A stretch of DNA of 64,000 bases from Coxiellales bacterium (GTDB taxonomy: Bacteria > Pseudomonadota > Gammaproteobacteria > CBDETP01), in contig CBDETP010000003.1 in NCBI GenBank assembly GCA_965242995.1, positions 83,304 through 147,303 on the forward strand, read 5' to 3'. Position numbers and translations under genes: made by a program. Positions 32,191-59,121 of this stretch are shown here, piece by piece. The first letter of the stretch is position 1. Every line of letters begins with the position of its first letter. The notes beneath the pieces were generated by a model that saw only the letters and a list, made by a program, of their open reading frames with translations, had not been told where the DNA came from and did not search any database.

Positions 32191-32300
32191 AGTAACGCTT
32201 CAATTGATTGGTTTAAGCTCTGTAAGTTTTTTGAGGTGATGTCATTAAGTTTATTTTTTCACGTAAATCATCGGCCGGTTTTCGAGCCTTTGTTTTTGCG

Positions 32301-33104
32301 TTGGTGTCTTGTTTTTTTATGTATGCTGATCATCACTGGTCCTCTTTCCATCAGTTTCGTTCAAAGCTGTCTAATGTTGTCGTGCCTTTTCAGCTAGTGG
32401 TGACAACACCCATTAAATTATTTCATGACGCCAGTAATTATATCGTCAGACAGAAGACACTAGTAGCCGACAATGAAGTTCTAAGAGGGAATAAGCTGGT
32501 GTTGCAGTCAAAGTTGCAGCAATTGCTTTTGTTAGAGAAAGAAAATTCGAATTTGCGGGCTTTATTGCAGGCGGGGCCACACATCGATGGTAAGACTATG
32601 GTTGCTGAGCTGGTTGCTGTCGGCGTTGACCCAAATAGAAAAGAGTTAGTGCTAGATAAAGGCAGCAATGACGGTGTATTTGCTGGGCAGCCGGTCATCG
32701 ATTCTACGGGGGTGGTTGGTCAGGTTGTTGAGGCAAACCTGTTTGCCAGCAGAGTGCTGTTAGTTACAGACTCAAGAAGTGCTACTCCAGTACAAAACAG
32801 TAGAACAGATTTTCGTGCAATTGCAGAGGGCTCAGGATCAGACAGCTTAGTATTACTGCACGTTGCTAAAAACAGTAATATTCAACAAGGTGATTTGTTT
32901 GTAACTTCTGGTTTAGGGCTTCGCTATCCAGCAGGATATCCAGTTGCAAAGGTTGTCAGTATTGCTAATAAAGGCGACAGTCAATTTTTAACGGTAACAC
33001 TTAAGCCACTGGCTTATTTGGAAAATGAGCGAGAGGTTTTGCTAGTGTGGCCAGGAATAAAGCAGCTTAAAAAATCAGTCGCTAATTTGCTTGATGGTTC
33101 TTGA
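32301..33104 (+). CDS. mreC: rod shape-determining protein MreC (5' end anomalous, see findings)
   Basis: MreC similarity runs through the whole length. The first canonical in-frame start (TTG 32301) lies inside the TM segment, and a conserved N-terminus (IKFIFSRKSS) is encoded upstream in the same frame from 32244. Confidence 0.75.
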   Translation: MVSCFFMYADHHWSSFHQFRSKLSNVVVPFQLVVTTPIKLFHDASNYIVRQKTLVADNEVLRGNKLVLQSKLQQLLLLEKENSNLRALLQAGPHIDGKTMVAELVAVGVDPNRKELVLDKGSNDGVFAGQPVIDSTGVVGQVVEANLFASRVLLVTDSRSATPVQNSRTDFRAIAEGSGSDSLVLLHVAKNSNIQQGDLFVTSGLGLRYPAGYPVAKVVSIANKGDSQFLTVTLKPLAYLENEREVLLVWPGIKQLKKSVANLLDGS

Positions 33105-39041: not shown

Positions 39042-39126
39042 AAAATGGCGAAAGAGGGGGAAAAGCAATTTTTTGCTTTTTGTATTGAACTTTAAAATAA
39101 AGGAATAAAAATGAACAAACAAAAAC

Positions 39127-39402
39127 TTGATTGATGTGATGGCAGAAGCTGCTGACATTTCTAAGTCTGCAGCAGAAAGAGCATTAAATGCTTTTACAAC
39201 ATGCGTTACTGATGCTTTATCAGAAAAAAAGGACGTCACTTTAGTAGGCTTTGGTAGCTTTACTACATCTAAGCGTGCTGCTAGACAAGGCCGTAACCCA
39301 CAAACAGGTGATCTAATGCAGATTCCATCTACCATTGTTGCTAGATTTAGAGCAGGTAAAAGACTTAAAGATGCAATTAATGATGAAAATGAAGAAAGTT
39401 AA
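39127..39402 (+). CDS. hupB: DNA-binding protein HU-beta
   Basis: HU fold (GFGSFTTSKRAARQGRNPQTGD...RFRAGKRLKDAIN). Only a TTG start is in frame. An ATG MNKQK start at 39111 is out of frame by one base within an A5 run. Confidence 0.85.
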   Translation: MIDVMAEAADISKSAAERALNAFTTCVTDALSEKKDVTLVGFGSFTTSKRAARQGRNPQTGDLMQIPSTIVARFRAGKRLKDAINDENEES

Positions 39403-41674: not shown

Positions 41675-42457
41675 TTATTCTTCAGCCATACCAATAATAT
41701 GGTAGCCTGCGTCGACATGAACAACTTCACCGGTGATGCCAGATGCTAAGTCTGAGCACAGAAATGCAGCAGCATTACCGACTTGCTCAGTGCTAATGTT
41801 TTCACGCAGGGGGGTTACTTTTTCATTGCGATCGAGCATGCTGCGAAAGCCCTTAATGCCAGAGGCGGCAAGTGTGCGAATAGGGCCGGCAGAGATTGCG
41901 TTAACACGAGTGCCTTTAGGGCCAAGGCTAGCAGCCATGTATTGTACATTAGCTTCTAAGCTGGCCTTCGCAACACCCATGACGTTATAGTTAGGGATGA
42001 CTCGTTCAGCACCAAGGTATGTCATGGTCAGTAGGGCGCCTTTTCGGCCTTCCATCATTGGCATTGCCGCTTTTGCTAAGCCTGCGAAACTGTAGCTGCT
42101 GATGTCATGTGCCATTAAAAAGCCTTCGCGAGTAATGTTTTCCATGAAGTTGCCCTGAATCTGCTCTGCAGGGGCATAAGCAACCGAGTGGACTAAAATA
42201 TCTAGTCCGTCCCACTTTTTATTCAGCTCGCTAAAGACATTGGTGATTTGCTCATCAGACGTAACGTCGCAAGGAATGATAATGTCTGAACCCCATTCAG
42301 CAGCCATTTTGCCAATACGGTCTTTGAATTTTTCATTTTGATAGGTGAAAGCAAGTTTTGCACCAGCTTTATGTAAAGCGTCGGCAATGCCATAGGCAAT
42401 GGATCGGTTACTAAGTAGTCCAACAATTAAAGCTGTTTTTCCTTGTAGGGTAGACAT
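41675..42457 (-). CDS. fabI: enoyl-[acyl-carrier-protein] reductase (NADH)
   Basis: Near full-length collinearity with E. coli FabI (SIAYGIA..., [19 protein letters not shown], catalytic Y/K). Confidence 0.9.
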
Positions 42458-43096
42458 GGGTGTATGCTCCTTTGGTTAATTAAATTCGATCCAGTGTAGG
42501 CTATAACTATTATTTTGTACAGCCGCCATGTGTAGTAATTCTGTGGTTTTTTTAGGTGCTTTTATCGAATAAAAAAAGACGCCCTACAAGCTTGACCTAC
42601 GTAATAGGCGCGCAGATACGTAAGATATTTCTTACTAAATCGTAGGACAACCTGGCTTATTTTTCACCATTAACTTTCAGGTTTGCCGTCTAATGTGTTG
42701 ATTTAAAATAATAAAACACTGACCCAGCCAGTATTTATTTTAACCAGCAAGAAATAAAAATGCGCAAGTGGTTTTTTTTTGTTAAATTTTTGGTAAATTA
42801 GGAAACAGGTGGTTTTAAAAATGATCAATCAAAGGGGGGGGATAACTTTGAGGAAATGAGTGTTGTGCTAATAGATAACCGTCTACTATAAACAAATAGA
42901 TCGTTAAAATAAAGCACAATAACAATTTTGAAGTTTGCTATGACAAGGATGTTGTAAATAGGCAAGGATGCCTTAAGAGGCTTCAAATCATAAGATCATT
43001 TTTCAAGACCGCCATTGGCGGTCTTTTTTTTTATTAAAATTATGAAAAATATCTGGTAGACTCGTTCTATATTTTTTAGCTATTGGTGGTTCTTTT

Positions 43097-43606
43097 ATGC
43101 GCATTTTTTGGATTTTCGTCTGTTTACTTTGTCTTTCGGGTTGCGCAATCAAGCCTACAGATTTGGGTTTTAATCACCAGCATTGGGATCAGCTCGGTAA
43201 AATTAAGCAGCAGCAGTTAATTGAACAATATAAGCAAACACAAAAATCGTCTTTTAATTTAGGCCAGCCAGTTGCTGGCTCTGCAATTGAAGTGCGAGTT
43301 AGCAATGGCCAAATGATGATGCCCCCATTTCTTGACTACAATGATTATCAACCAGTTTCTTTTGTTTTATTTGAAAATCAATGCAAAAAAACAAAGGTGT
43401 TGTCGCTGACTGGCAAGCAAAAAATAAATTTATCAGCGTGTTATTACGAAAATATTTTAAGTTTAGATGGCAGTGAGTACGACATGAAAAAAAGAATGGG
43501 TACTTTGTTTATTCATTCTAGTCCGTCTGTGGAAAAAGGGTTTTACCTATTATGGATTGTTCAGCGAAGGTTATGTTCGTTTGAAGCAGGTCAGTATTTA
43601 CATTAA
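43097..43606 (+). CDS. lipoprotein of unknown function
   Basis: Lipobox LSGCA; 169 aa; no recognisable domain. Confidence 0.4.
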   Translation: MRIFWIFVCLLCLSGCAIKPTDLGFNHQHWDQLGKIKQQQLIEQYKQTQKSSFNLGQPVAGSAIEVRVSNGQMMMPPFLDYNDYQPVSFVLFENQCKKTKVLSLTGKQKINLSACYYENILSLDGSEYDMKKRMGTLFIHSSPSVEKGFYLLWIVQRRLCSFEAGQYLH

Positions 43607-49142: not shown

Positions 49143-49324
49143 GGTATTAGAAAATCCTTATCTGTTTGGGTCGTAAATTATCATACCTGATTAATGCTGT
49201 TGAGGAAAAGTAATTGAGCAATTTTAATCTGTGTGGGTTTTTTTCTTGCTGGAAAGATCGGCTAATCTCCTATAATATGACCGGCACAACTGAAATAATA
49301 AGCTTTTAAAAAAAGGTGGGTTCT

Positions 49325-50413
49325 ATGAATTTTATTGATTTATCCAAGCAATATGCCCGCATGAAGAGCGAAATTGATGCTAATATTCAAAAAGTTTTAG
49401 ATCATGGTCGCTATGTGATGGGGCCAGAGATTACTGAGGTTGAACAGCAGTTAGCTGACTTTGTCGGCGTGAAGCATTGTCTTGCTGTTTCGAGCGGCAC
49501 CACAGCACTGCAAATAGCATTAATGGCACTTGAGATAGGGCCTGGCGATGAAGTAATTACCACAGATTTTAGCTTTTTTGCCTCCGCTGAGGTCATTTTG
49601 CTGGTTGGTGCAAAGCCGGTTTTTGTCGATATTGATCCGGTCACCTACAACATAGATCCAGACAAGTTAGAGGCAGCAATCACCGAGCGTACTAAAGCGA
49701 TTGCACCGGTCAGCCTTTACGGGCAGTGTGCCGACATGACGGCTATTAACGCAGTGGCTGCCAAGCATGGTCTTGCGGTTGTTGAGGATGCAGCACAAAG
49801 TTTTGGTGCCTTGCACCACGGCAGGCGCTCTTGTGGTTTGAGCACAATCGGTTGCACCAGTTTTTTCCCAACCAAGCCTTTAGGTTGCTATGGTGATGGC
49901 GGTGCTTGTTTTACGGATGATGCTGAGTTGGCGGAAAATATCAGGCAAATTCGTCAGCATGGTGAGGCTTCACGGTATAATCACGTGCGGGTAGGTATTA
50001 CAGGTCGATTAGCAAGCATCCAAGCGGCGGTTCTGAAAGTGAAGTTAAAATACTTTCCTGATGAAATTATTCAGCGTCAGCAAGCCGCAGCTATGTATAC
50101 GGAAAAGCTTGCTGGTGTGATTAAAACGCCACAAGTGGTTGATGGGAATGAGAGTGTGTTTGCTCAATACACAATTGAAGTTGATGATAGGGAAGCCTGG
50201 CAGAAAAAACTACAAGAGCGCGGCATACCAACGGCGGTTCATTATCCTAAAACACTGCATGAGCAAAAAGCGTGTGAGGGTATAGAATGTGTCACGCCCC
50301 ATGCGCTGTCAGCAGCAAGACGAGTCATGAGCTTGCCTTTTGGTCCGGATATTGCTGAATCAGAAATCAATGAGGTGGTGAAAGCCATTAAGCAGGTGGT
50401 GGTGAATGGCTGA
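49325..50413 (+). CDS. DegT/DnrJ/EryC1-family PLP-dependent sugar aminotransferase
   Basis: Aminotransferase fold with a conserved Lys region. AAGGTGG RBS. Overlaps rfaH by 8 nt, consistent with an operon. Confidence 0.75.
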   Translation: MNFIDLSKQYARMKSEIDANIQKVLDHGRYVMGPEITEVEQQLADFVGVKHCLAVSSGTTALQIALMALEIGPGDEVITTDFSFFASAEVILLVGAKPVFVDIDPVTYNIDPDKLEAAITERTKAIAPVSLYGQCADMTAINAVAAKHGLAVVEDAAQSFGALHHGRRSCGLSTIGCTSFFPTKPLGCYGDGGACFTDDAELAENIRQIRQHGEASRYNHVRVGITGRLASIQAAVLKVKLKYFPDEIIQRQQAAAMYTEKLAGVIKTPQVVDGNESVFAQYTIEVDDREAWQKKLQERGIPTAVHYPKTLHEQKACEGIECVTPHALSAARRVMSLPFGPDIAESEINEVVKAIKQVVVNG

Positions 50414-50927
50414 GTCAGAGTCACACGCTAAGAGGTGGTATTTAGTTCAGACCAAGGTTCGGCAAGAGCAAGTGGCGGTGGATAATTTAGAATATCAGGG
50501 CTATGAAGTTTATCTGCCAATGCTGGAGGTTCGTCGGCGTCGAAGACTAAAAATGACTTGTGTTGTTGAGCCAATGTTCCCCCGTTATTTGTTTATTCAT
50601 TTAGACACTTCTGCTGACAATTGGTCACCGATTCGCTCAACGCGCGGCGTTAGCCATATAATCCGATTTGGCCAGCAGCCAGCTTTTATTGCTGATGAGC
50701 TAATTGAATTGCTACACTTAAGAGAGCAGGGCAAGGATACTAAAAAAGAGTCGGCATCAACTTTTGAAAAGGGCGAAAAGGTACAGATAATTGCCGGTGC
50801 TTTTGCAGGGCATGAGGCGATATTTAACGCCGAATCCAGTGATGAGCGCGTTTGTTTGCTACTTGATATCGCCGGGCGGCATACCCAAATTAAAATTCAC
50901 CAAGATCAGGTTGACTCAGCTCAGTAG
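50406..50927 (+). CDS. rfaH: transcription antiterminator RfaH (NusG paralogue)
   Basis: WYLVQTK..., TRGVSHIIRFG (versus E. coli RfaH TRGVSHFVRFG), and a KOW-like C-terminus. Confidence 0.75.
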   Translation: MAESESHAKRWYLVQTKVRQEQVAVDNLEYQGYEVYLPMLEVRRRRRLKMTCVVEPMFPRYLFIHLDTSADNWSPIRSTRGVSHIIRFGQQPAFIADELIELLHLREQGKDTKKESASTFEKGEKVQIIAGAFAGHEAIFNAESSDERVCLLLDIAGRHTQIKIHQDQVDSAQ

Positions 50928-51058
50928 TTTTGTTGCTTTTGTTGCTTTTGTTGCTTTTGTTGCTTTTGTTGCTTTTGTTGCTTTTGTTGCTTTTTGTTGC
51001 TTTTTGTTGCTTTTTGTTGCTTTTTGTTGCTTTTTGTTGCTTTTGTTGCTTTTGTTGC
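50928..51058 (+). repeat. tandem microsatellite: (TTTTGTTGC)6-(TTTTTGTTGC)5-(TTTTGTTGC)2
   Basis: Direct reading. The array starts at the rfaH stop codon. Confidence 0.9.
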
Positions 51059-51129
51059 CATATCTGTTTGATGTTTAAGTCAAGCTCCCGCAGCTTTGAT
51101 TGGTGCGTCAGCCCCCTTAAAGCTGCCTT

Positions 51130-51142
51130 GATAAAGGCTCCC
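51130..51142 (+). repeat. homopolymeric C13 tract
   Basis: Direct reading. Lies about 250 bp upstream of the first LPS-cluster gene. Confidence 0.85.
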
Positions 51143-51294
51143 CCCCCCCCCCTGAAATGCCCAGTGCTTTTTTTTAGTTCAAACTTGTATTTACCTTAGC
51201 GTTTGGTACCATGTCCGCTCGATAACTTTTTGGTGTAATGTGGTTTTTTGCCCGTAACACCCACGCTTTTTAAGATGCCTAACTGACACGGTAG

Positions 51295-51306
51295 GGCGGT
51301 AGCGTG
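51295..51306 (+). promoter_or_regulatory. ops element (GGCGGTAGCGTG), RfaH recruitment site / JUMPStart core
   Basis: Exact 12-mer match to the ops consensus, 88 nt upstream of the TTG start of 51394. Confidence 0.75.
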
Positions 51307-51393
51307 TTTGGGATCTTGAGTACGACGAATTATTGTGACAAAAAAATAATGTGCTTTTTGAAAGGTTTTGAGTAAAATGAAGAGGTTGTTACA

Positions 51394-52386
51394 TTGAAAA
51401 AAATATTTATTACGGGAGCAGATGGATTTATCGGCTCACATTTAGCTGAACGATTAGTTCGTGATGGTTATCAAGTTAAAGCACTTGCGCAATATAATTC
51501 ATTTAATTCTTGGGGATGGCTTGACTCCTCATCATTAAAAAATGATATGGAAGTTGTTACGGGTGATGTACGCGATCCTTTTGCGATGAAAACGTTCATG
51601 AAAGGTTGTGATGCCGTATTGCATTTAGCGGCACTTATTGCAATCCCTTATTCCTATCATGCGCCAGCAAGTTATGTTGATACGAATGTATCAGGGACAT
51701 TGAATATTGTTCAAGCTGCACGTGAATTAGGTATTTCAAAAGTCGTACATACATCAACAAGTGAAGTTTATGGTACGGCAAAATATGTGCCTATTGATGA
51801 ATTACATCCACTACAGGGTCAATCGCCTTACTCAGCGTCAAAAATTGGTGCTGATCAAATGGCCATTTCTTATTACAACTCCTTTGAAACACCTGTTGCG
51901 ATTATTAGGCCGTTTAATACTTACGGGCCACGGCAATCAGCCCGCGCGGTGATACCAACAATTATTTCACAAATAGCGAGCGGTAAACGTGAGATTAAGT
52001 TAGGCGCATTAACACCAACACGTGACTTTAATTATGTTGCAGATACCGTAAGTGGTTTTGTTTCAATGCTTGAGTCTGAGAAATCAATTGGTGAAGTTAT
52101 TAATATTGGTAGCAATTATGAAATATCGATTGGCGATCTCGTTAAAACTATTGCGCAAGTGATGAATGTTGATGTGAATGTTATTGAAGACGACCAACGT
52201 ATTCGCCCTGCTAATAGTGAAGTTGAAAGACTTTGGGCAGAAAACAAAAAAGCTAAAGAGCTCACTGGCTGGGTGCCTGAGTTTTATGGAATCGAAGGCT
52301 TGCGTAAAGGGCTAGTCGAAACAGTCGAATGGTTTACACAAGAGCAGAATTTAGCCCACTATAAAACAGATATATATAACGTATGA
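51394..52386 (+). CDS. NAD-dependent sugar-nucleotide 4,6-dehydratase/epimerase (LegB/PseB-like)
   Basis: Rossmann GxxGxxG (ITGADGFIGSHL) and a YxxxK active site. TTG start with AAGAGG RBS. Confidence 0.6.
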   Translation: MKKIFITGADGFIGSHLAERLVRDGYQVKALAQYNSFNSWGWLDSSSLKNDMEVVTGDVRDPFAMKTFMKGCDAVLHLAALIAIPYSYHAPASYVDTNVSGTLNIVQAARELGISKVVHTSTSEVYGTAKYVPIDELHPLQGQSPYSASKIGADQMAISYYNSFETPVAIIRPFNTYGPRQSARAVIPTIISQIASGKREIKLGALTPTRDFNYVADTVSGFVSMLESEKSIGEVINIGSNYEISIGDLVKTIAQVMNVDVNVIEDDQRIRPANSEVERLWAENKKAKELTGWVPEFYGIEGLRKGLVETVEWFTQEQNLAHYKTDIYNV

Positions 52387-53564
52387 CTTCTAAGAAGGAA
52401 CATATTGACATAGAGTTGTTGAAAGTATTAGATTCAGTTTTACCTCAGTCTATAACAAGGCCAATTGCTCTGCACGAGCCGGCATTTTTTGGCAATGAGT
52501 TAAAGTATGTCACTGAATGCATTGAAACCGGTTGGGTATCATCTGTTGGCAAGTATGTTGATTTAATCGAAGAAAAGCTTTGTGCAATTACAGGTGCTAA
52601 ATTTGCTATTGCAGTTGTCAATGGCACTGCGGCTTTGCATCTTGCCTATATCATGGCAGGCGTCAAACTAGGCGATGAAGTCCTTGTGCCAGCCCTTACT
52701 TTTATTGCGACGGCCAATGCGGTAGCTTACTGCGGCGCGACACCTCACTTTGTAGATTCCAGTGAAAATGACTTAGGCGTTTGTCCAATCAAATTAGATG
52801 TATACTTGTCTGAGATTTCTGAAGTTCAAGATGGTGTGTGTGTTAATAAAAACACCGGAAAAGTTATACGTGCTTTATGTGTCACACATATTTTTGGTTT
52901 GCCAGCTCAGCTAAAACCATTAAAAGCAGTTTGTGATAAATATAAGATTGCCTTGATTGAAGATGCTGCCGAGGCATTAGGTTCCTATTATCAGGGTGAG
53001 CATGTAGGCCACTATGGACTATGCGGCATTATCAGTTTCAATGGTAATAAAATAACAACCACTGGCGGTGGCGGCGCACTATTAACCGATGATCCTGAGC
53101 TTGCAAAACGGGCAAAGCATTTATCAACCACAGCAAAAATACCTGCAGAAAGCTGGGAATATCGCTACGATGCTATTGGCTATAATTATCGCATGCCAAA
53201 TATCAATGCAGCTCTTGGTTGTGCACAGCTAGACAATTTGCCTATTATGCTAGAGAAAAAGCGTGAATTAGCTGGTAGATACAGAGAGTCAATTTTAAAA
53301 ATAAAAGGCATCGAATTTATTTCCGAGTCAGAAGACACTCAAAGTAACTATTGGCTTAACGCTGTGAAATGTGATTTCCAAAGTATTGAAGAAAGAAATG
53401 CTTGCCTGAAAATATTAAATTCTCAAGGCTATGGCTGTAGGCCCGTTTGGGATTTGCTGTGTGAGCAGAATGTTTATCAAGGCAATCCGAAAATGAATTT
53501 AGAAGCTGCTAAAGTACTCGCTACAAATGTTATTAATTTGCCAAGTAGCTATTTGCTGAGTTAA
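52383..53564 (+). CDS. DegT-family aminotransferase (LegC/PglE-like)
   Basis: PLP sugar aminotransferase; 4-nt overlap with the upstream gene. Confidence 0.7.
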   Translation: MTSKKEHIDIELLKVLDSVLPQSITRPIALHEPAFFGNELKYVTECIETGWVSSVGKYVDLIEEKLCAITGAKFAIAVVNGTAALHLAYIMAGVKLGDEVLVPALTFIATANAVAYCGATPHFVDSSENDLGVCPIKLDVYLSEISEVQDGVCVNKNTGKVIRALCVTHIFGLPAQLKPLKAVCDKYKIALIEDAAEALGSYYQGEHVGHYGLCGIISFNGNKITTTGGGGALLTDDPELAKRAKHLSTTAKIPAESWEYRYDAIGYNYRMPNINAALGCAQLDNLPIMLEKKRELAGRYRESILKIKGIEFISESEDTQSNYWLNAVKCDFQSIEERNACLKILNSQGYGCRPVWDLLCEQNVYQGNPKMNLEAAKVLATNVINLPSSYLLS

Positions 53565-53576
53565 GTGATTTAAACA

Positions 53577-54761
53577 GTGTCAAATGTTAAAAGAAAAATC
53601 GCAGTTGTAACCGGCAGTAGAGCCGATTATGGCCTTCTGTACTGGCTATTACATGAGATAAAACAAGATCCAGTGTTAGAGTTGCAAGTAATCGTAACCG
53701 GCATGCATTTGTCATCAGAGTTTGGCAACACTTATAAAGAAATAGAAAAAGATGGGTTTGAAATTACTTGTAAAGTAGATTCATTAATATCTTCAGATTC
53801 ATCTATTGCCATTACTAAATCTGTGGGTTTGGGTGTGATTGGATTTGCCGATGCTTATGCCGCATGCAATCCAGATATAATTGTTTTATTGGGCGATCGT
53901 CACGAAATATTAGCTGCCGGCATGGCCGCGTTGACGATGAGAATTCCAATGGCTCATATTCATGGTGGTGAAACAACGCCAGCGATGTTAGATGATCCAA
54001 TAAGGCACTGTTTAACTAAAATAGCACATTTGCATTTTCCTGCTGCAGATGGCTATGCAAAACGTATATGTCAGCTTGGCGAAGAAAAAAAACGAATTTT
54101 TTGTTTCGGCGGGCCAGGGCTTGACCACTTAGAACGCTTGGAGCTGTCAAGTAAATCAGAGTTAGAGCAAGATTTAGAAGTTGATTTATCCAAACCATTT
54201 TTTGTGATTACCTATCATCCTGTGACTTTGCAAGCTGGATCCATTGTAGAGCATTACCATTCTTTGCTAGAAGCTTTGAATGAGTTTGTAGATTATACAT
54301 TAATTTTTACCTGCTCGAATGCTGATCATGAAGGGCGTGAAGTTTTTAGTATTTTAAATGAATATAAAGCTAATAGCTCTAGAAAAAACATACACGTATT
54401 TACGAGCCTTGGGTTCAAGCGATATATTTCTTTAGTGCGATTTGCTAGTGCAGTGATTGGAAATTCATCAAGTGGATTAATAGAGGTCCCACATTTGGGC
54501 GTGCCGACAGTTAACATCGGTGATAGACAAAAATCCAGGCTAAAAGCAAACACGGTTATAGACTGTAAAAATTATTCAGCATCAATTTCTTCAGCTATAA
54601 AAAAAGCTTTATCTTCTGATTTTAAAAAATATTTATCTAAAGTTAAGTCGCCTTATAAAAAAGGCAATGTATCTTTTCAGATAAAAGAAGCACTCAAATC
54701 ATATTCTTTAGATTCAATTTTAGAGAAAAATTTCATAGATATGGATATTGAAAATGTATAA
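53577..54761 (+). CDS. neuC: UDP/GDP-N-acetylglucosamine 2-epimerase (hydrolysing), NeuC/LegG-like
   Basis: N-terminus KIAVVTGSRADYG and the HGGE motif are typical of NeuC. Confidence 0.8.
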   Translation: MSNVKRKIAVVTGSRADYGLLYWLLHEIKQDPVLELQVIVTGMHLSSEFGNTYKEIEKDGFEITCKVDSLISSDSSIAITKSVGLGVIGFADAYAACNPDIIVLLGDRHEILAAGMAALTMRIPMAHIHGGETTPAMLDDPIRHCLTKIAHLHFPAADGYAKRICQLGEEKKRIFCFGGPGLDHLERLELSSKSELEQDLEVDLSKPFFVITYHPVTLQAGSIVEHYHSLLEALNEFVDYTLIFTCSNADHEGREVFSILNEYKANSSRKNIHVFTSLGFKRYISLVRFASAVIGNSSSGLIEVPHLGVPTVNIGDRQKSRLKANTVIDCKNYSASISSAIKKALSSDFKKYLSKVKSPYKKGNVSFQIKEALKSYSLDSILEKNFIDMDIENV

Positions 54762-55839
54762 TACCTTGGATGGAAAAACATTTATTATTGCAGAAGCAGG
54801 TGTTAACCATAATGGTTCGCTTGATTTAGCAAAGCAGTTAGTTGATGTTGCGGTAAACGCAGATGCTGATGCGGTTAAGTTTCAGACTTTTAAAGCAGAA
54901 AGTTTGGTAACAAAATCTGCGGTGCAAGCTGAGTATCAAACAGTCAATACTGGTGTAAGAGAAAGTCAGTACGATATGCTCAAGCGTCTTGAGTTAAGTT
55001 TTGATGATTTTATTGAGCTGAAAAATTATTGTGATTCTAAAAATATTGAGTTTATGACAACTGCTTTTGATCATGAAAGTTTACATTTTATTGTAAAGGA
55101 CTTAGGTGTTAAGCGCTTTAAAATACCATCAGGTGATATTACGAATGGGCCTTTAATTTTGGAGCATGCTAAATACAAGCTCCCCATTATTCTATCGACA
55201 GGAATGGCGACACTTGCTGAGATTGAAACTGCACTTGGGGTCATCGCATTTGGGTTGTTGCGTCGAGAAAATCCTTCATTAAAGGCATTCGAGGCAGCTT
55301 ATTATTCTGATGAAGGACAGACTATACTAAAAGAGTATGTTACTGTTTTGCATTGTACGTCTCAATATCCGGCGCCGTTTAATGAGGTTAATTTGCGCTG
55401 CATGAAGACGTTTAAAACAGCATTTAGCCTACCTTCAGGTTATTCAGATCATACTAACGGTATAGCTATACCAGTTGCAGCTACTGCTATGGGGGCAGCT
55501 GTTATAGAAAAACACTTCACTTTAGATAAAACTATGGAGGGCCCTGATCACAAAGCATCGTTGGACCCTACTGAACTAAAGCAAATGATCTCCAGCATTC
55601 GTCAAGTTGAAATGGCAATGGGTGATGGAGTTAAAAAACCCACTGTTTCTGAGTTAAAAACTAGAGGTGTTGCTAGAAAGTCCTTAGTTGCTGCGTGTGA
55701 TATTAAGAAGGGTGAAAACTATAAATCAAAACTTGCGGTTAAAAGACCGGGTACAGGAATGTCACCGATGCGATATTGGGAAGTTCAAGAAAGAATTGCA
55801 ATAAAAGCTATGAATGAAGGTGAGCTCATTGAAGACTAA
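54748..55839 (+). CDS. neuB: N-acetylneuraminate/legionaminic acid synthase (NeuB/LegI-like)
   Basis: IIAEAGVNHNG motif, a TIM barrel and a C-terminal SAF domain. Confidence 0.85.
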   Translation: MKMYNTLDGKTFIIAEAGVNHNGSLDLAKQLVDVAVNADADAVKFQTFKAESLVTKSAVQAEYQTVNTGVRESQYDMLKRLELSFDDFIELKNYCDSKNIEFMTTAFDHESLHFIVKDLGVKRFKIPSGDITNGPLILEHAKYKLPIILSTGMATLAEIETALGVIAFGLLRRENPSLKAFEAAYYSDEGQTILKEYVTVLHCTSQYPAPFNEVNLRCMKTFKTAFSLPSGYSDHTNGIAIPVAATAMGAAVIEKHFTLDKTMEGPDHKASLDPTELKQMISSIRQVEMAMGDGVKKPTVSELKTRGVARKSLVAACDIKKGENYKSKLAVKRPGTGMSPMRYWEVQERIAIKAMNEGELIED

Positions 55840-56413
55840 TGCAAAACCTGTTTTATTGTTAGGCCTTGGTGGTCATGCAAAAGTCTTGATTAATATTCTA
55901 AGACTTACTGGGCACGATATTAAAGGAGCTTTGTCCCCAGACCCATTGGGTACAGCAGTGTTGGGTGTGCCTGTTATAGGTAATGACAGTGATTTAGAGA
56001 GCTTCAGTCCAAATGATATCGAGCTAGTGAATGCATTAGGTCATTTGCCAAATAATAATACTCGCGAAATGTTGTTTAAGCTAGGTAAAAAAATTGGCTT
56101 TACTTTTGCAAATGTGATCCATCCGAGTGCAATTATTGCTAATGATGTGAAACTTGGTGAAGGTGTGCAAGTTATGGCTGGCACTATACTAGAGCCGGCT
56201 GTTGAAATTGGTGATAACTCGATTGTGAATACTGGGGCAAGTATTAATCATGATACAATAATAGGTGAGCATTCACATATAGCGCCAGGTGTTGTGGTTT
56301 GTGGTGGAGCTAATATTGGTAGTGGCGTATTTGTCGGTGCTGCCTCATCGTTAATGCCAGGTGCTATTGTCAATGATAATGCTTTTATAAAAGCCAATGA
56401 GCTTGTGAAGTAA
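55814..56413 (+). CDS. hexapeptide-repeat sugar N-acetyltransferase (PglD/NeuD/LegH-like)
   Basis: N-terminal Rossmann-like LLGLGGHAKV plus left-handed beta-helix repeats. Confidence 0.65.
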   Translation: MKVSSLKTNAKPVLLLGLGGHAKVLINILRLTGHDIKGALSPDPLGTAVLGVPVIGNDSDLESFSPNDIELVNALGHLPNNNTREMLFKLGKKIGFTFANVIHPSAIIANDVKLGEGVQVMAGTILEPAVEIGDNSIVNTGASINHDTIIGEHSHIAPGVVVCGGANIGSGVFVGAASSLMPGAIVNDNAFIKANELVK

Positions 56414-56445
56414 GGTAAATTAACTATCCCAGATGAGTAAATTTG

Positions 56446-57492
56446 ATGAACGATAAGAATTGTATTTCAGAAAAAATCACCATTAAAGAAGCTATTTCAA
56501 CGTTAGATGCAGTTGAAAAGAAGATACTTGTTGTGTTAAATGATGCTAAGAAAGTTGAAGGAACAATTACAGATGGTGATATACGACGTAGTTTGTTAAG
56601 CGGGCTCGGGTTAGATTCAACTGTTTTTGATGTTATGAATAAAGCGCCCATTCTTATGCATGAGAAAGAAAGTGAGGCCAAAATTATTGAGAAAATGGAG
56701 CAAGAATTGATTTTTTACGTTCCACTTGTAAATAATAATGACGAGTTCATTGATTTGGTTTCATTAATCAGTCTAAAAGAAAACCTGTATAGTGATTACG
56801 GTGTTTTTATTCTAGCAGGTGGCTTAGGGTCTAGGTTAAAGGATCTTACGCAAGATACACCAAAACCGATGCTACCTATTAATGGAAGGCCAATGCTGGA
56901 ACGATTAATTTTATCTTTCAAGGAACAAGGGTTTCACAAATTCTATCTCGCGGTAAATTATTTTAAAGAGCAGATTATAGATCATTTTGGCGATGGTGCT
57001 GACTATGGTGTTGATATTAGATATATGGAAGAGGACAAGCGCCTGGGTACAGCAGGGCCTTTGTCGTTACTCGATAAGGATTTAGTGGAAACTGACTTGA
57101 TCATTATCAATGCCGATGTATGCATTAAGACTAATTATCGAGCATTGGTTAATTATCATAAAAAACAAAAAAACATGTTGACAGTCTCTGTGAAAGAATA
57201 TTCACATAAAATACCTTATGGTGTAATACGTTTTGATGGTGATGAATATGTTTCAATGGAAGAAAAGCCAGTTATATCCTATTATGTTAATGCGGGTATT
57301 TATGTGGTTAATAAAAGTATACTGGGTCAGATAAAAGAAAATGCATATTTAGACATGCCTGATTATGTTGATCAAGTCAAATCAGGTGGAAGTAAGACCG
57401 GAGTTTATCCGCTACATGAAGATTGGCTCGATGTTGGTGCTATTAAAGATTATAACGTCGCAAATAACCTAAAAGCTGATGATTTAAAATGA
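56446..57492 (+). CDS. CBS-domain sugar-phosphate nucleotidyltransferase (PtmE-like)
   Basis: Tandem CBS region followed by a nucleotidyltransferase GxGxR motif (LAGGLGSRLK). Confidence 0.65.
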   Translation: MNDKNCISEKITIKEAISTLDAVEKKILVVLNDAKKVEGTITDGDIRRSLLSGLGLDSTVFDVMNKAPILMHEKESEAKIIEKMEQELIFYVPLVNNNDEFIDLVSLISLKENLYSDYGVFILAGGLGSRLKDLTQDTPKPMLPINGRPMLERLILSFKEQGFHKFYLAVNYFKEQIIDHFGDGADYGVDIRYMEEDKRLGTAGPLSLLDKDLVETDLIIINADVCIKTNYRALVNYHKKQKNMLTVSVKEYSHKIPYGVIRFDGDEYVSMEEKPVISYYVNAGIYVVNKSILGQIKENAYLDMPDYVDQVKSGGSKTGVYPLHEDWLDVGAIKDYNVANNLKADDLK

Positions 57493-58394
57493 AAGTTCTA
57501 TTAATTGGTTATGGTTCAATTGGTCGAAAGCATTATAAAGTACTGGATAGCCTAAAAAAGCAGATTGAATCAATTGACATTGTTACTAAACAAAGTTTAA
57601 CAGGCGACTTTATTACATATAAAATGTTAGAGGATGTGCCAAATTTAAATATTTATGATTATTTTATTATAGCATCTGAAACAGTTAAGCATTATGTGCA
57701 ACTAAAGTTTTTGTGTGCACGCGTCAAGAATAAAAAAATACTGGTAGAAAAACCATTGTTTGAAAAGATTCATTCAAAACTAAATTTAAATCAAAATCAG
57801 GTTTTTGTTGCTTATAACTTGCGATTTCATCCTATCATTCAAAAAATAAAAAAACTAATGCTGCGCGAAAAATGCCTAAGCGTACATATTTATTGTGGGC
57901 AATATCTACCAACTTGGCGTCAAGGTGTTGATTACCGACAATCGTATAGCGCATCAAAAGAGCAAGGTGGTGGCGTGCTTCGTGATTTGAGTCATGAGTT
58001 GGATTATATGTCTTGGCTGTTTGGAGATTTAGATGAGTATTTTTTTATTAATGAGAAGATATCAGGTTTAGAGATAACGTCAGATGATACTTATCATTGT
58101 ATTGGTAAAACTAAAGCAGGTGTTATTGTTGATTTGTCGATAGATTATATTAGCAAAAAACCAATAAGAACTATCATGATACACTTCGAGGATTTGTCTT
58201 TATATTCAGATTTAATTGCAAGTACTCTAGAGTGTGTAGATAAAGATGGCATCAGTACCATGCATAGTTTTGAAAAATCACCAATGATACCCTATCAGAA
58301 AATGCATCATGACATACTGTCAGATCAAGAGTATATGTGCACTTATAAAGAAGGTTTAAAAACACTAGAAGTTTTCCCATTGGATCATCAATAG
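57489..58394 (+). CDS. Gfo/Idh/MocA-family oxidoreductase (PtmF-like)
   Basis: N-terminal Rossmann fold (LLIGYGSIGRKH); 4-nt overlap with the upstream gene. Confidence 0.55.
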   Translation: MKVLLIGYGSIGRKHYKVLDSLKKQIESIDIVTKQSLTGDFITYKMLEDVPNLNIYDYFIIASETVKHYVQLKFLCARVKNKKILVEKPLFEKIHSKLNLNQNQVFVAYNLRFHPIIQKIKKLMLREKCLSVHIYCGQYLPTWRQGVDYRQSYSASKEQGGGVLRDLSHELDYMSWLFGDLDEYFFINEKISGLEITSDDTYHCIGKTKAGVIVDLSIDYISKKPIRTIMIHFEDLSLYSDLIASTLECVDKDGISTMHSFEKSPMIPYQKMHHDILSDQEYMCTYKEGLKTLEVFPLDHQ

Positions 58395-58410
58395 CTTTAA
58401 GGAATTATAA

Positions 58411-59121
58411 ATGGACCATAAAACAAATGTCCTATGCACTATATGTGCAAGGGGGGGGTCAAAAGGTGTGCCTAAAAAGAACATTAGAGAAGTTAATGGT
58501 AAGCCATTGATTGCTTATAGTATCGAGCAGGCGTTAGAGTCAAGTTTATTTGATCATGTGGTGGTTAGTACGGATTGCGATGATATTGCTAACATTGCTA
58601 AACAATATGGTGCTGAAGTGTTTTTCAAAAGGTCTAATGAGCTAGCTTCAGATGATTCTGGTAAATTACCGGTTATTAGAGATGCGTTCATACGTTCTGA
58701 AAAACAGTTTAATAAGAAGTTTGTTATATTGGTTGATATTGATGCAACGTCGCCGCTAAGGACTGTTGATGATATAAAAGAGTCAGTTAATCAATTTATT
58801 CAAAATAATAATAGTAATTTAATTTCTGCTTGCTTGAGTCATCGAAGTCCGTATTTTAATCTTATTGAAGAAGATAAAACGGGTAAGATTGGTTTGTCTA
58901 AGTCTTTGTCGGGGGCGGTATTAAGAAGACAAGATGCTCCAAAAACCTATGATATGAATGCTTCTATCTATGTTTGGAAAAGAGATGCTATATTGCATCA
59001 AGATTCACTTTTTTTAGATGATACAGGTTTGTATGTTATGCCTGCCTCTAGGTCTTTCGATATTGACTCAGAGTTGGATTTTAAAATCGTTAGTTTTTTA
59101 TTAAAGACAAATGGCAATTGA
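58411..59121 (+). CDS. neuA: CMP-N-acylneuraminate/legionaminate cytidylyltransferase (NeuA/LegF-like)
   Basis: ICARGGSKGVPKKN motif typical of CMP-sugar synthetases. Confidence 0.8.
   Translation: MDHKTNVLCTICARGGSKGVPKKNIREVNGKPLIAYSIEQALESSLFDHVVVSTDCDDIANIAKQYGAEVFFKRSNELASDDSGKLPVIRDAFIRSEKQFNKKFVILVDIDATSPLRTVDDIKESVNQFIQNNNSNLISACLSHRSPYFNLIEEDKTGKIGLSKSLSGAVLRRQDAPKTYDMNASIYVWKRDAILHQDSLFLDDTGLYVMPASRSFDIDSELDFKIVSFLLKTNGN

Follow-up and report, generated by a model that had tools for sequence, protein, structure and literature searches.

In Bordetella, the C-stretch of the fimbrial genes fim2, fim3 and fimX occurs in C10 to C18 alleles, with interrupted forms (C6TC3) in sister species, and its length correlates with transcript level (PMC1891110). 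In Helicobacter pylori, the homopolymeric T-tract upstream of sabA shifts the axial alignment of UP-like elements relative to the core promoter and gives a multiphasic output (PMC4081817). Here, we describe a locus to which these two tracts are the nearest functional analogs, namely the spacer between rfaH and legB in a 64,000-nucleotide stretch of DNA from a Coxiellales bacterium (positions 83,304 to 147,303 of contig CBDETP010000003.1, GenBank assembly GCA_965242995.1; hereafter the window), in which a compound 9/10-base tandem array and a run of 13 cytosines (C13) precede a legionaminic-acid gene cluster. Two further systems resemble the locus in part. In Haemophilus influenzae, the copy number of the 7-bp array (ATCTTTC)n of hmw1A and hmw2A grades expression, and the array is transcribed in the 5′ untranslated region, where it pairs with a G-rich region to give an RNase III hairpin (PMC12721329). 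In Campylobacter, poly-G/C contingency tracts are common in pseudaminic- and legionaminic-acid loci (PMC8355987, PMC3068675).

As at the Bordetella fim genes, a long poly-C tract stands upstream of a surface-structure gene in the window, and two relatives differ in it (CT followed by C13 in the window, C9 in the related metagenome contig L185). However, the Bordetella tract lies within the promoter, beside a conserved 'fim box' (PMC1891110), whereas no activator site or suitably spaced -10 element was identified at the window C tract, and the target is an O-antigen operon led by ops and RfaH rather than a fimbrial gene. The sabA case requires no tract within a -35/-10 spacer, and the same mechanism may apply to the window C tract, although the sabA T-tract adjoins the -35 element, whereas the window tract consists of C, stops 15 bp short of a UP-like T8 run and 32 bp short of the -35 of a candidate promoter (P2), and has a predicted role only. 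The hmw array is the closest long-unit case, with a unit of more than 6 bp and a position upstream of a surface-factor gene, but the window array is unpaired in RNA folds and lies upstream of the predicted transcription starts. With Campylobacter, the locus shares homopolymers at nonulosonic-acid surface-glycan genes, including an in-frame G8 in a legF-like gene; the Campylobacter tracts, in contrast, are mostly intragenic frameshift switches in flagellin glycosylation islands, whereas the main window tracts are intergenic and belong to a cluster of lipopolysaccharide (LPS)/O-antigen type.

RfaH/ops (JUMPstart) leaders precede enterobacterial LPS, capsule and hemolysin operons. The window resembles these in encoding an RfaH orthologue and in carrying an exact 12-nt ops on the coding strand of the untranslated leader of a long polysaccharide operon, while differing in that its leader region gave no relevant Rfam match at E<=10. 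No report of simple-sequence tracts in RfaH/ops leaders was found in the literature searched. Our preferred explanation, which we consider plausible but put forward tentatively, is that slippage would tune the transcription of the legionaminic-acid operon in a graded manner, with the C tract as the main effector.

Two tracts of variable length beside a conserved leader

The array occupies positions 50928–51058, without strand assignment, and its first base directly adjoins the TAG stop codon of rfaH (50925–50927), as an earlier note on this DNA had placed it. Tandem Repeats Finder returned a period of 9, 14.0 copies, 98% matches and a score of 217, which no other non-coding array in the window approached. 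Exact parsing resolved 14 units with zero substitutions, arranged as seven copies of TTTTGTTGC (50928–50990), five of TTTTTGTTGC (50991–51040) and two of TTTTGTTGC (51041–51058). The total length of 131 bp agrees with the earlier note, which had counted 13 units. The block order therefore runs from T4 units to T5 units and back to T4 units, with all T5 units contiguous rather than scattered. Such a pure, block-structured array is the pattern expected from slippage that spreads a variant unit; the contiguous T5 block looks like the spread of one such unit, and is typical of array turnover.

The C13 homopolymer, also without strand assignment, lies at 51140–51152 and is immediately preceded by C-T. 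It was correctly recognized in the earlier note, although the distance from the array is 81 bp rather than 70 bp, and the end coordinate given there (51142) covered only the first 3 bases of the run. Across the 64 kb, the next-longest C run has 5 bases and the longest G runs are two G8 tracts, and fewer than 1e-3 runs of C13 or G13 are expected by arithmetic from the base frequencies. Both the array and C13 are far beyond chance and are extreme outliers in the window, and both are long and pure enough for frequent slipped-strand mispairing.

The sole comparator carrying the same spacer was the ENA metagenome contig L185, which aligns to window positions 50904–53458 at ~90% nucleotide identity and encodes the closest LegB relative found (P0242, 96% amino-acid identity). 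Its array reads TTTTGTTGC, CG, TTTTTTGTTGC and five copies of TTTTGTTGC, amounting to 7 units over 67 bp (14 over 131 bp in the window), and its C run reads GG-C9-TG against GG-CT-C13-TG, with the flanks GATAAAGG and TGAAATGCCCAGTGC conserved. The array thus clearly differs in length between related genomes whose flanks are 90–98% identical, and the C run reads differently as well, as judged from this one comparator, and the proneness to slippage asserted by the earlier note is borne out by both tracts. Both tracts would have persisted since the two lineages split by ~10% in the legB coding sequence, yet with different lengths. A substitution-free array core in both lineages requires ongoing homogenization by slippage, and the degenerate 5′ edge of the L185 array fits the expectation of array turnover. 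A third allele of the array may exist in a 47-kb JGI contig (3300072015; P0361), where the leg cluster stands beside a divergent RNase E gene across an 818-bp spacer with a 34-residue minus-strand open reading frame 400–504 bp upstream of legB.

Divergence from L185 is unevenly distributed along the locus. The plus-strand block from the C tract to legB (51153–51393) is 97.9% identical (5 mismatches and 1 gap in 241), compared with 89.7% for the legB coding sequence (102 substitutions, 87 of them at the third positions of its 331 codons) and 90.2% for the aligned part of legC. The leader is more conserved than legB by Fisher's test, both over all sites (p=9e-6) and against third codon positions (p=2e-17). 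The plus-strand unique segment between the two tracts (51059–51139) is 89.9% identical (8 mismatches in 79 aligned); its changes are rarer than at legB third codon positions (p=0.002), and this segment, next to the array, is the least conserved of the spacer. These comparisons suggest that the 241 bp between the C tract and legB form a functional promoter/leader under purifying selection, and they place the C tract between conserved non-coding elements, whereas the array is, as far as the alignment tells, at the less conserved distal edge; neither tract lies in an open reading frame.

Among these elements is an inverted repeat with 10-bp arms, GCAGCTTTGA (51090–51099) and TTAAAGCTGC (51117–51126), which forms a hairpin in both minimum-free-energy and centroid folds; the single change within its stem in L185, C to T at 51126, turns a G-C pair into G-U and keeps the pairing. 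The -35-like hexamer TTGATA (51128–51133) follows between the tracts, TGAAAT (51153–51158) abuts the 3′ side of C13, and the two hexamers are identical in L185.

In L185, the sequence 5′ of the array (3269–3704) is a scar made up of the 5′ ends of a legB-like and a neuC-like gene followed by two rfaH pieces, with no intact rfaH. Since array, C run and leader are kept there despite the fragmented rfaH, the tracts appear to travel with the leg leader and not with rfaH function.

Promoter candidates, ops and a proposed graded model

The conserved leader holds a T8 run, two promoter candidates, the ops element and the legB ribosome-binding site. The UP-like T8 run (51168–51175) is positioned where an UP element of P2 would lie. 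Candidate P2 combines the -35 element TTGTAT (51185–51190), a 16-nt spacer and the TG-extended -10 element TACCAT (51207–51212), with a start at ~51219 and a score of 8.1, while candidate P1 combines TTGCCC (51248–51253), a 17-nt spacer and TAAGAT (51271–51276), with a start at ~51283 and a score of 10.7. Both come from a sigma-70-like position-weight scan of the plus strand, in which 20 sites in the 64 kb reach the score of P1. P2 is unchanged in L185, and the -35 of P1 reads TTACCC there. Both candidates lie upstream of ops and downstream of both tracts, beginning 33 bp (P2) and 96 bp (P1) past C13. At 51203–51218, overlapping the -10 of P2, TGGTACCATGTCCGCT carries GG and GC at the sigma-54 -24/-12 spacing and is identical in L185; this resemblance was noted by eye and may be due to chance.

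Downstream of the promoter candidates, the ops element GGCGGTAGCGTG (51295–51306, plus strand) lies within GGTAGGGCGGTAGCGTG and is the sole exact match in the window. The 12-nt consensus GGCGGTAGnnTG is matched exactly, 88 nt upstream of the legB start, and by its sequence this coding-strand element is the site that recruits RfaH. The rfaH gene itself (50406–50927, plus strand) scored 179 bits against TIGR01955 RfaH (cut-off 144.5), contains the Pfam NusG domain and overlaps the upstream DegT-family aminotransferase gene (49316–50413) by 8 nt; the spacer from rfaH to legB (51394) is 466 bp long and holds both tracts. An encoded RfaH orthologue and a coding-strand ops in the leader of a long operon together mark the locus as a probable RfaH/ops-controlled operon. 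As previously noted, the tracts precede ops within the non-coding DNA leading into the legionaminic-acid/O-antigen operon.

The legionaminic-acid genes (51394–59121, plus strand; NCBIfam and Pfam) form the head of a polysaccharide cluster in the order legB, legC, neuC, neuB, neuD, nucleotidyltransferase, oxidoreductase and legF-like cytidylyltransferase, with NCBIfam scores of 529 bits for LegB, 494 for LegC, 457 for NeuC, 485 for NeuB and 177 for NeuD, in addition to a PseF-like cytidylyltransferase. Along the polysaccharide cluster, G+C content drops from ~0.43 to 0.31; together with the 96% relative of LegB, for which PurB and RfaH have no counterpart, this drop suggests that the leg cluster has been exchanged horizontally. 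Within the legF-like gene (58411–59121), a G8 run at 58451–58458 encodes in frame (AGG GGG GGG) the conserved Arg-Gly-Gly of the cytidylyltransferase motif, which the related contig L186 encodes as AGA GGA GGC; slippage may thus be possible at a second site of this operon.

In the graded model that we favor, both tracts, located at the upstream border of a constrained leader that would drive the RfaH/ops-dependent legionaminic-acid O-antigen operon, would gain and lose units through slippage during replication, and tract length would serve as a heritable, stochastic and graded 'volume control' on operon transcription instead of switching it cleanly ON or OFF. Of the two, the C tract is more likely to be the effector, because conserved sequences flank it and its length would shift spacing and helical phase. 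In particular, each C gained or lost would alter the spacing and helical phase of the inverted repeat and TTGATA on the upstream side relative to T8 and P2 on the downstream side. The array, located ~160–290 bp upstream of the P2 start, would probably have a weaker effect, exerted through DNA shape. A/T-tracts bend DNA macroscopically only if they are phased with the helical repeat. In line with this rule, a wedge-model calculation, whose values are indicative only, predicted the 9-mer block to be straight (~12 degrees per 63 bp) and the 10-mer T5 block, the only one that is helix-phased, to be curved (~75 degrees, the 99th percentile of the window).

The earlier note had proposed that the tracts alter promoter spacing or terminator strength, and this placement did not hold, as neither tract lies in a recognizable -35/-10 spacer or terminator and no intrinsic terminator was predicted between rfaH and legB. 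It had also taken a transcription start downstream of both tracts as evidence against a regulatory role; the starts at ~51219 and ~51283 point in that direction, albeit as predictions only. Tracts upstream of a promoter can nevertheless act, as they do at sabA (PMC4081817) and at the Bordetella fim genes (PMC1891110), and predicted downstream starts do not preclude an effect of the tracts.

Several observations nevertheless weigh against graded control by the tracts. Neither tract falls within the -35/-10 spacer of a good promoter candidate. The arrangement of rfaH, ops and legB exists without the tracts in L186 and L187, where they are therefore dispensable, and the units of L185 are nearly all 9-mers, so that the predicted curvature is not conserved there. 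In principle, a short recent recombination patch could account for the near identity of the leader, although this is the less parsimonious explanation. The window assembly carries at least one homopolymer frameshift (in hupB, described below). The L185 contig is error-prone as well, with ~4 indels per kb in legC, several of them at short homopolymers, which break the gene; its C9 count is unreliable, and the difference between C9 and C13 could be partly a base-calling artifact. The 63-bp difference in array length, on the other hand, is robust to such errors.

Alternative explanations and more distant relatives

The most serious alternative is that slippage at this locus is neutral, in which case a T/G-rich stretch 3′ of rfaH would have seeded a free microsatellite and the C run would be tolerated junk at the edge of the leader. 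We consider this possible, though less likely than the graded model. Part of its support comes from the more distant relatives L186, L187 and L189, whose LegB proteins are 88–90% identical to that of the window. L187 preserves synteny with the window from purB and DegT to rfaH and legB, apart from one additional gene ahead of rfaH, and its 197-bp rfaH–legB spacer contains an identical GGTAGGGCGGTAGCGTG while lacking both the array and the C run; L186 likewise has ops and neither tract. The 17-mer GGTAGGGCGGTAGCGTG is thus identical upstream of legB in L185, L186 and L187, and the latter two keep ops and the operon without the tracts, as neutrality would allow. In L189, where rfaH likewise precedes the polysaccharide genes, a 202-bp spacer follows rfaH and carries (TGTTTG)x3.5 from 18 nt past the stop codon, with the tracts of the window absent, and L187 carries TGTGTTTGTTGG where the L189 repeat begins, 3′ of rfaH. 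It therefore looks as if a T/G-rich sequence 3′ of rfaH were ancestral, from which the array may have been seeded, and both repeats are, to judge from these spacers, lineage-specific additions that are evolutionarily labile. Neutrality would also agree with the two-fold difference in array length between the window and L185, where operon and leader are otherwise conserved, with the low conservation of the array-adjoining segment, and with predicted promoters that lie downstream of both tracts. Against it, conserved sequence borders the C tract on either side, and a change in tract length thereby alters the geometry of a constrained region; moreover, a long pure C run has been kept in both lineages despite ~10% divergence of the legB coding sequence. 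The tracts also occupy a surface-glycan locus, exactly where such tracts are known to act (PMC8355987, PMC1891110).

The more distant LegB relatives from L189 to L193 have legB inside the operon, with no equivalent spacer, and the RfaH homologs in species-representative genomes (L001–L080) reach ~50% identity at best, with spacers that are unalignable. The 13.6-kb contig that supplied L187 and L188 (ENA ERZ26869290 ctg335936) contains the purB region twice and inverted, with the rfaH–legB segment readable from both ends, and looks like an inverted-duplication assembly artifact.

A second alternative concerns transcription termination rather than initiation. Rho is classically activated by poly(C), and Rho-dependent polarity is suppressed by RfaH. 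The C tract could accordingly belong to a Rho-loading (rut-like) patch, at which RNA reading through from DegT–rfaH or from another upstream start would be terminated unless RfaH loads at ops ~150 nt downstream; the length of the C tract would then tune termination and hence the RfaH-dependence of the operon. Several features would suit such a patch. No intrinsic terminator was found between rfaH and legB, and the region 51080–51217 is rich in C and in YC dimers, with a plus-strand C/G ratio of ~2.1–2.3 against a window median of 0.73 and with 18–23 YC dimers in each 78 nt, a content above the 99.9th percentile. RNA folds show little structure in the array and the C region, and the array is essentially unpaired in the centroid fold (z-score -1.2). 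The pairing of the 51090–51126 hairpin survives the change from G-C to G-U in L185, as could be the case if the plus strand is transcribed, and the activation of Rho by poly(C) and the suppression of polarity by RfaH are in keeping with it. However, nearly all of the excess of C is contributed by the one C13 run, whereas a typical rut site spreads its YC dimers over ~60–80 nt, and the array itself has more G than C and zero YC dimers. In addition, transcription of the region is putative, the C tract precedes the good promoter candidates, and the tract is kept in L185 although rfaH is only a remnant there. A Rho-loading patch is consequently unlikely in our view, and its fuller form, in which a hypermutable C tract would load Rho before the ops pause and slippage would tune the dependence of the O-antigen operon on RfaH antitermination, is slightly more so. 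If true, phase or graded variation would operate here via termination and antitermination, and not via promoter strength or frameshift.

A third alternative would make the C tract a promoter spacer, with TTGATA (51128–51133) as the -35 and TGAAAT (51153–51158) as the -10 element, so that only some tract lengths would give a working distance of 16–18 bp. The two hexamers directly flank the tract and are identical in L185, the spacing is 19 bp in the window (AAGGCT plus C13) and 13 bp in L185 (AAGG plus C9), and the loss of 1 or 2 C from the window allele would bring it to 18 or 17 bp. Nevertheless, the second base of TGAAAT is not the A that is nearly invariant there in -10 elements, the pair was not among the scored candidates of the promoter scan, and neither observed allele has a functional spacer length, which makes a switch of this kind very improbable.

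Finally, that the tracts are an assembly or base-calling artifact deserves hardly any credence: the hupB frameshift in the window, the several indels in L185 and the fact that T4/T5 and exact C counts are calls that long-read assemblies miss would favor it, but two assemblies, made independently from different samples, agree in having the array and a long C run at this position, the T5 units are grouped in a single block, and a 63-bp difference in the array is not a homopolymer error.

Other candidate identities for the array were considered and set aside. A dispersed repeat family was rejected, as a metagenome scan for three tandem 9-mers yielded 104 loci with arrays of 27–99 bp, none with a flank homologous to the window locus. 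Small open reading frames over the array (a 46-residue QQK-repeat on the minus strand and Leu/Phe/Cys-rich ones on the plus strand) were treated as by-products of the 9-nt repeat. A CrcZ-like match (RF01675) on the minus strand of the array reached 17.6 bits against a gathering score of 95 and was rejected. More generally, Rfam returned no relevant leader or riboswitch family at E<=10 for 50300–51700, with only weak chance-level matches, and over the whole window only tRNAs reached the gathering score. An hmw-type hairpin with the array as pairing partner was ruled out by the unpaired state of the array in the folds, and PhoP-like TGTTTA-N5 direct repeats for a response regulator, sought by eye, misfit in both half-site and spacing.

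The 7-mer arrays that flank rfaH in L018, L072, L065 and L068 are unrelated, since they fill successive intergenic regions, for example before gltX in L072. Long 7-mer intergenic arrays of this type were seen in uncultured gammaproteobacterial genomes (L018 2961–4580, L072 2800–4594, L065, L068, L011 and L042); in L072, (CACTAAT)17 reaches the start codon of rfaH, a genome-wide habit unrelated to the window array.

Assembly quality, lineage and biological meaning

The earlier note had cautioned that homopolymer indels in hupB and mreC make the exact C count uncertain, and this caveat was substantiated for hupB, which has an extra A in an A5 run, and not for mreC, whose irregularity is not at a homopolymer. 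The HU gene hupB (39113–39386) stops after 7 codons (ATG AAC AAA CAA AAA CTT GAT TGA), and removal of one A from the A5 run restores the normal HU N-terminus MNKQNLIDVMAEAADISK; the break reflects either a homopolymer indel in the assembly or a genuine frameshift. Given such an error, the exact C count and the T4/T5 calls are uncertain by ~1 base. In mreC (32236–32400), the canonical N-terminus IKFIFSRKSSAGF is in a frame that has no ATG, GTG or TTG start, the ATG at 32239 being in another frame, and the start may be ATT at ~32244. The second G8 run of the window (42834–42841) lies in a 640-bp intergenic region between the divergent genes 41675–42457 (minus strand) and 43097–43606 (plus strand).

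Among 5.8 billion sequences, the PurB of the window is at most 58% and its RfaH at most 55% identical to any other protein, and the source of the window is, on this evidence, an orphan gammaproteobacterial lineage. Look-ups of exact copies of the window RfaH, PurB and LegB returned no contig. Two window genes (10368–11654 and 12425–13558) encode eukaryote-like proteins, one a DUF4116 repeat protein derived from a 75-bp x8.4 tandem repeat and the other a Ser-rich protein with an IQ calmodulin-binding motif; association with a host is hinted at by the pair.

Of most practical use from this analysis are the L185 sequence as a second allele and the sharply conserved leader of 241 bp, which is a good target for mapping the promoter and the RfaH recruitment region in this lineage. 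The locus is one at which assemblies will disagree and at which O-antigen expression may be heterogeneous. Should graded control by the tracts prove true, the compound 9/10-nt unit would allow both the number of units and the internal T-run to slip, and slippage-based control would be found in the leader of an RfaH/ops-led O-antigen operon, a context for which we found no report. Slippage-based control of surface glycans would then reach an uncultured, deep-branching gammaproteobacterium with eukaryote-like proteins.

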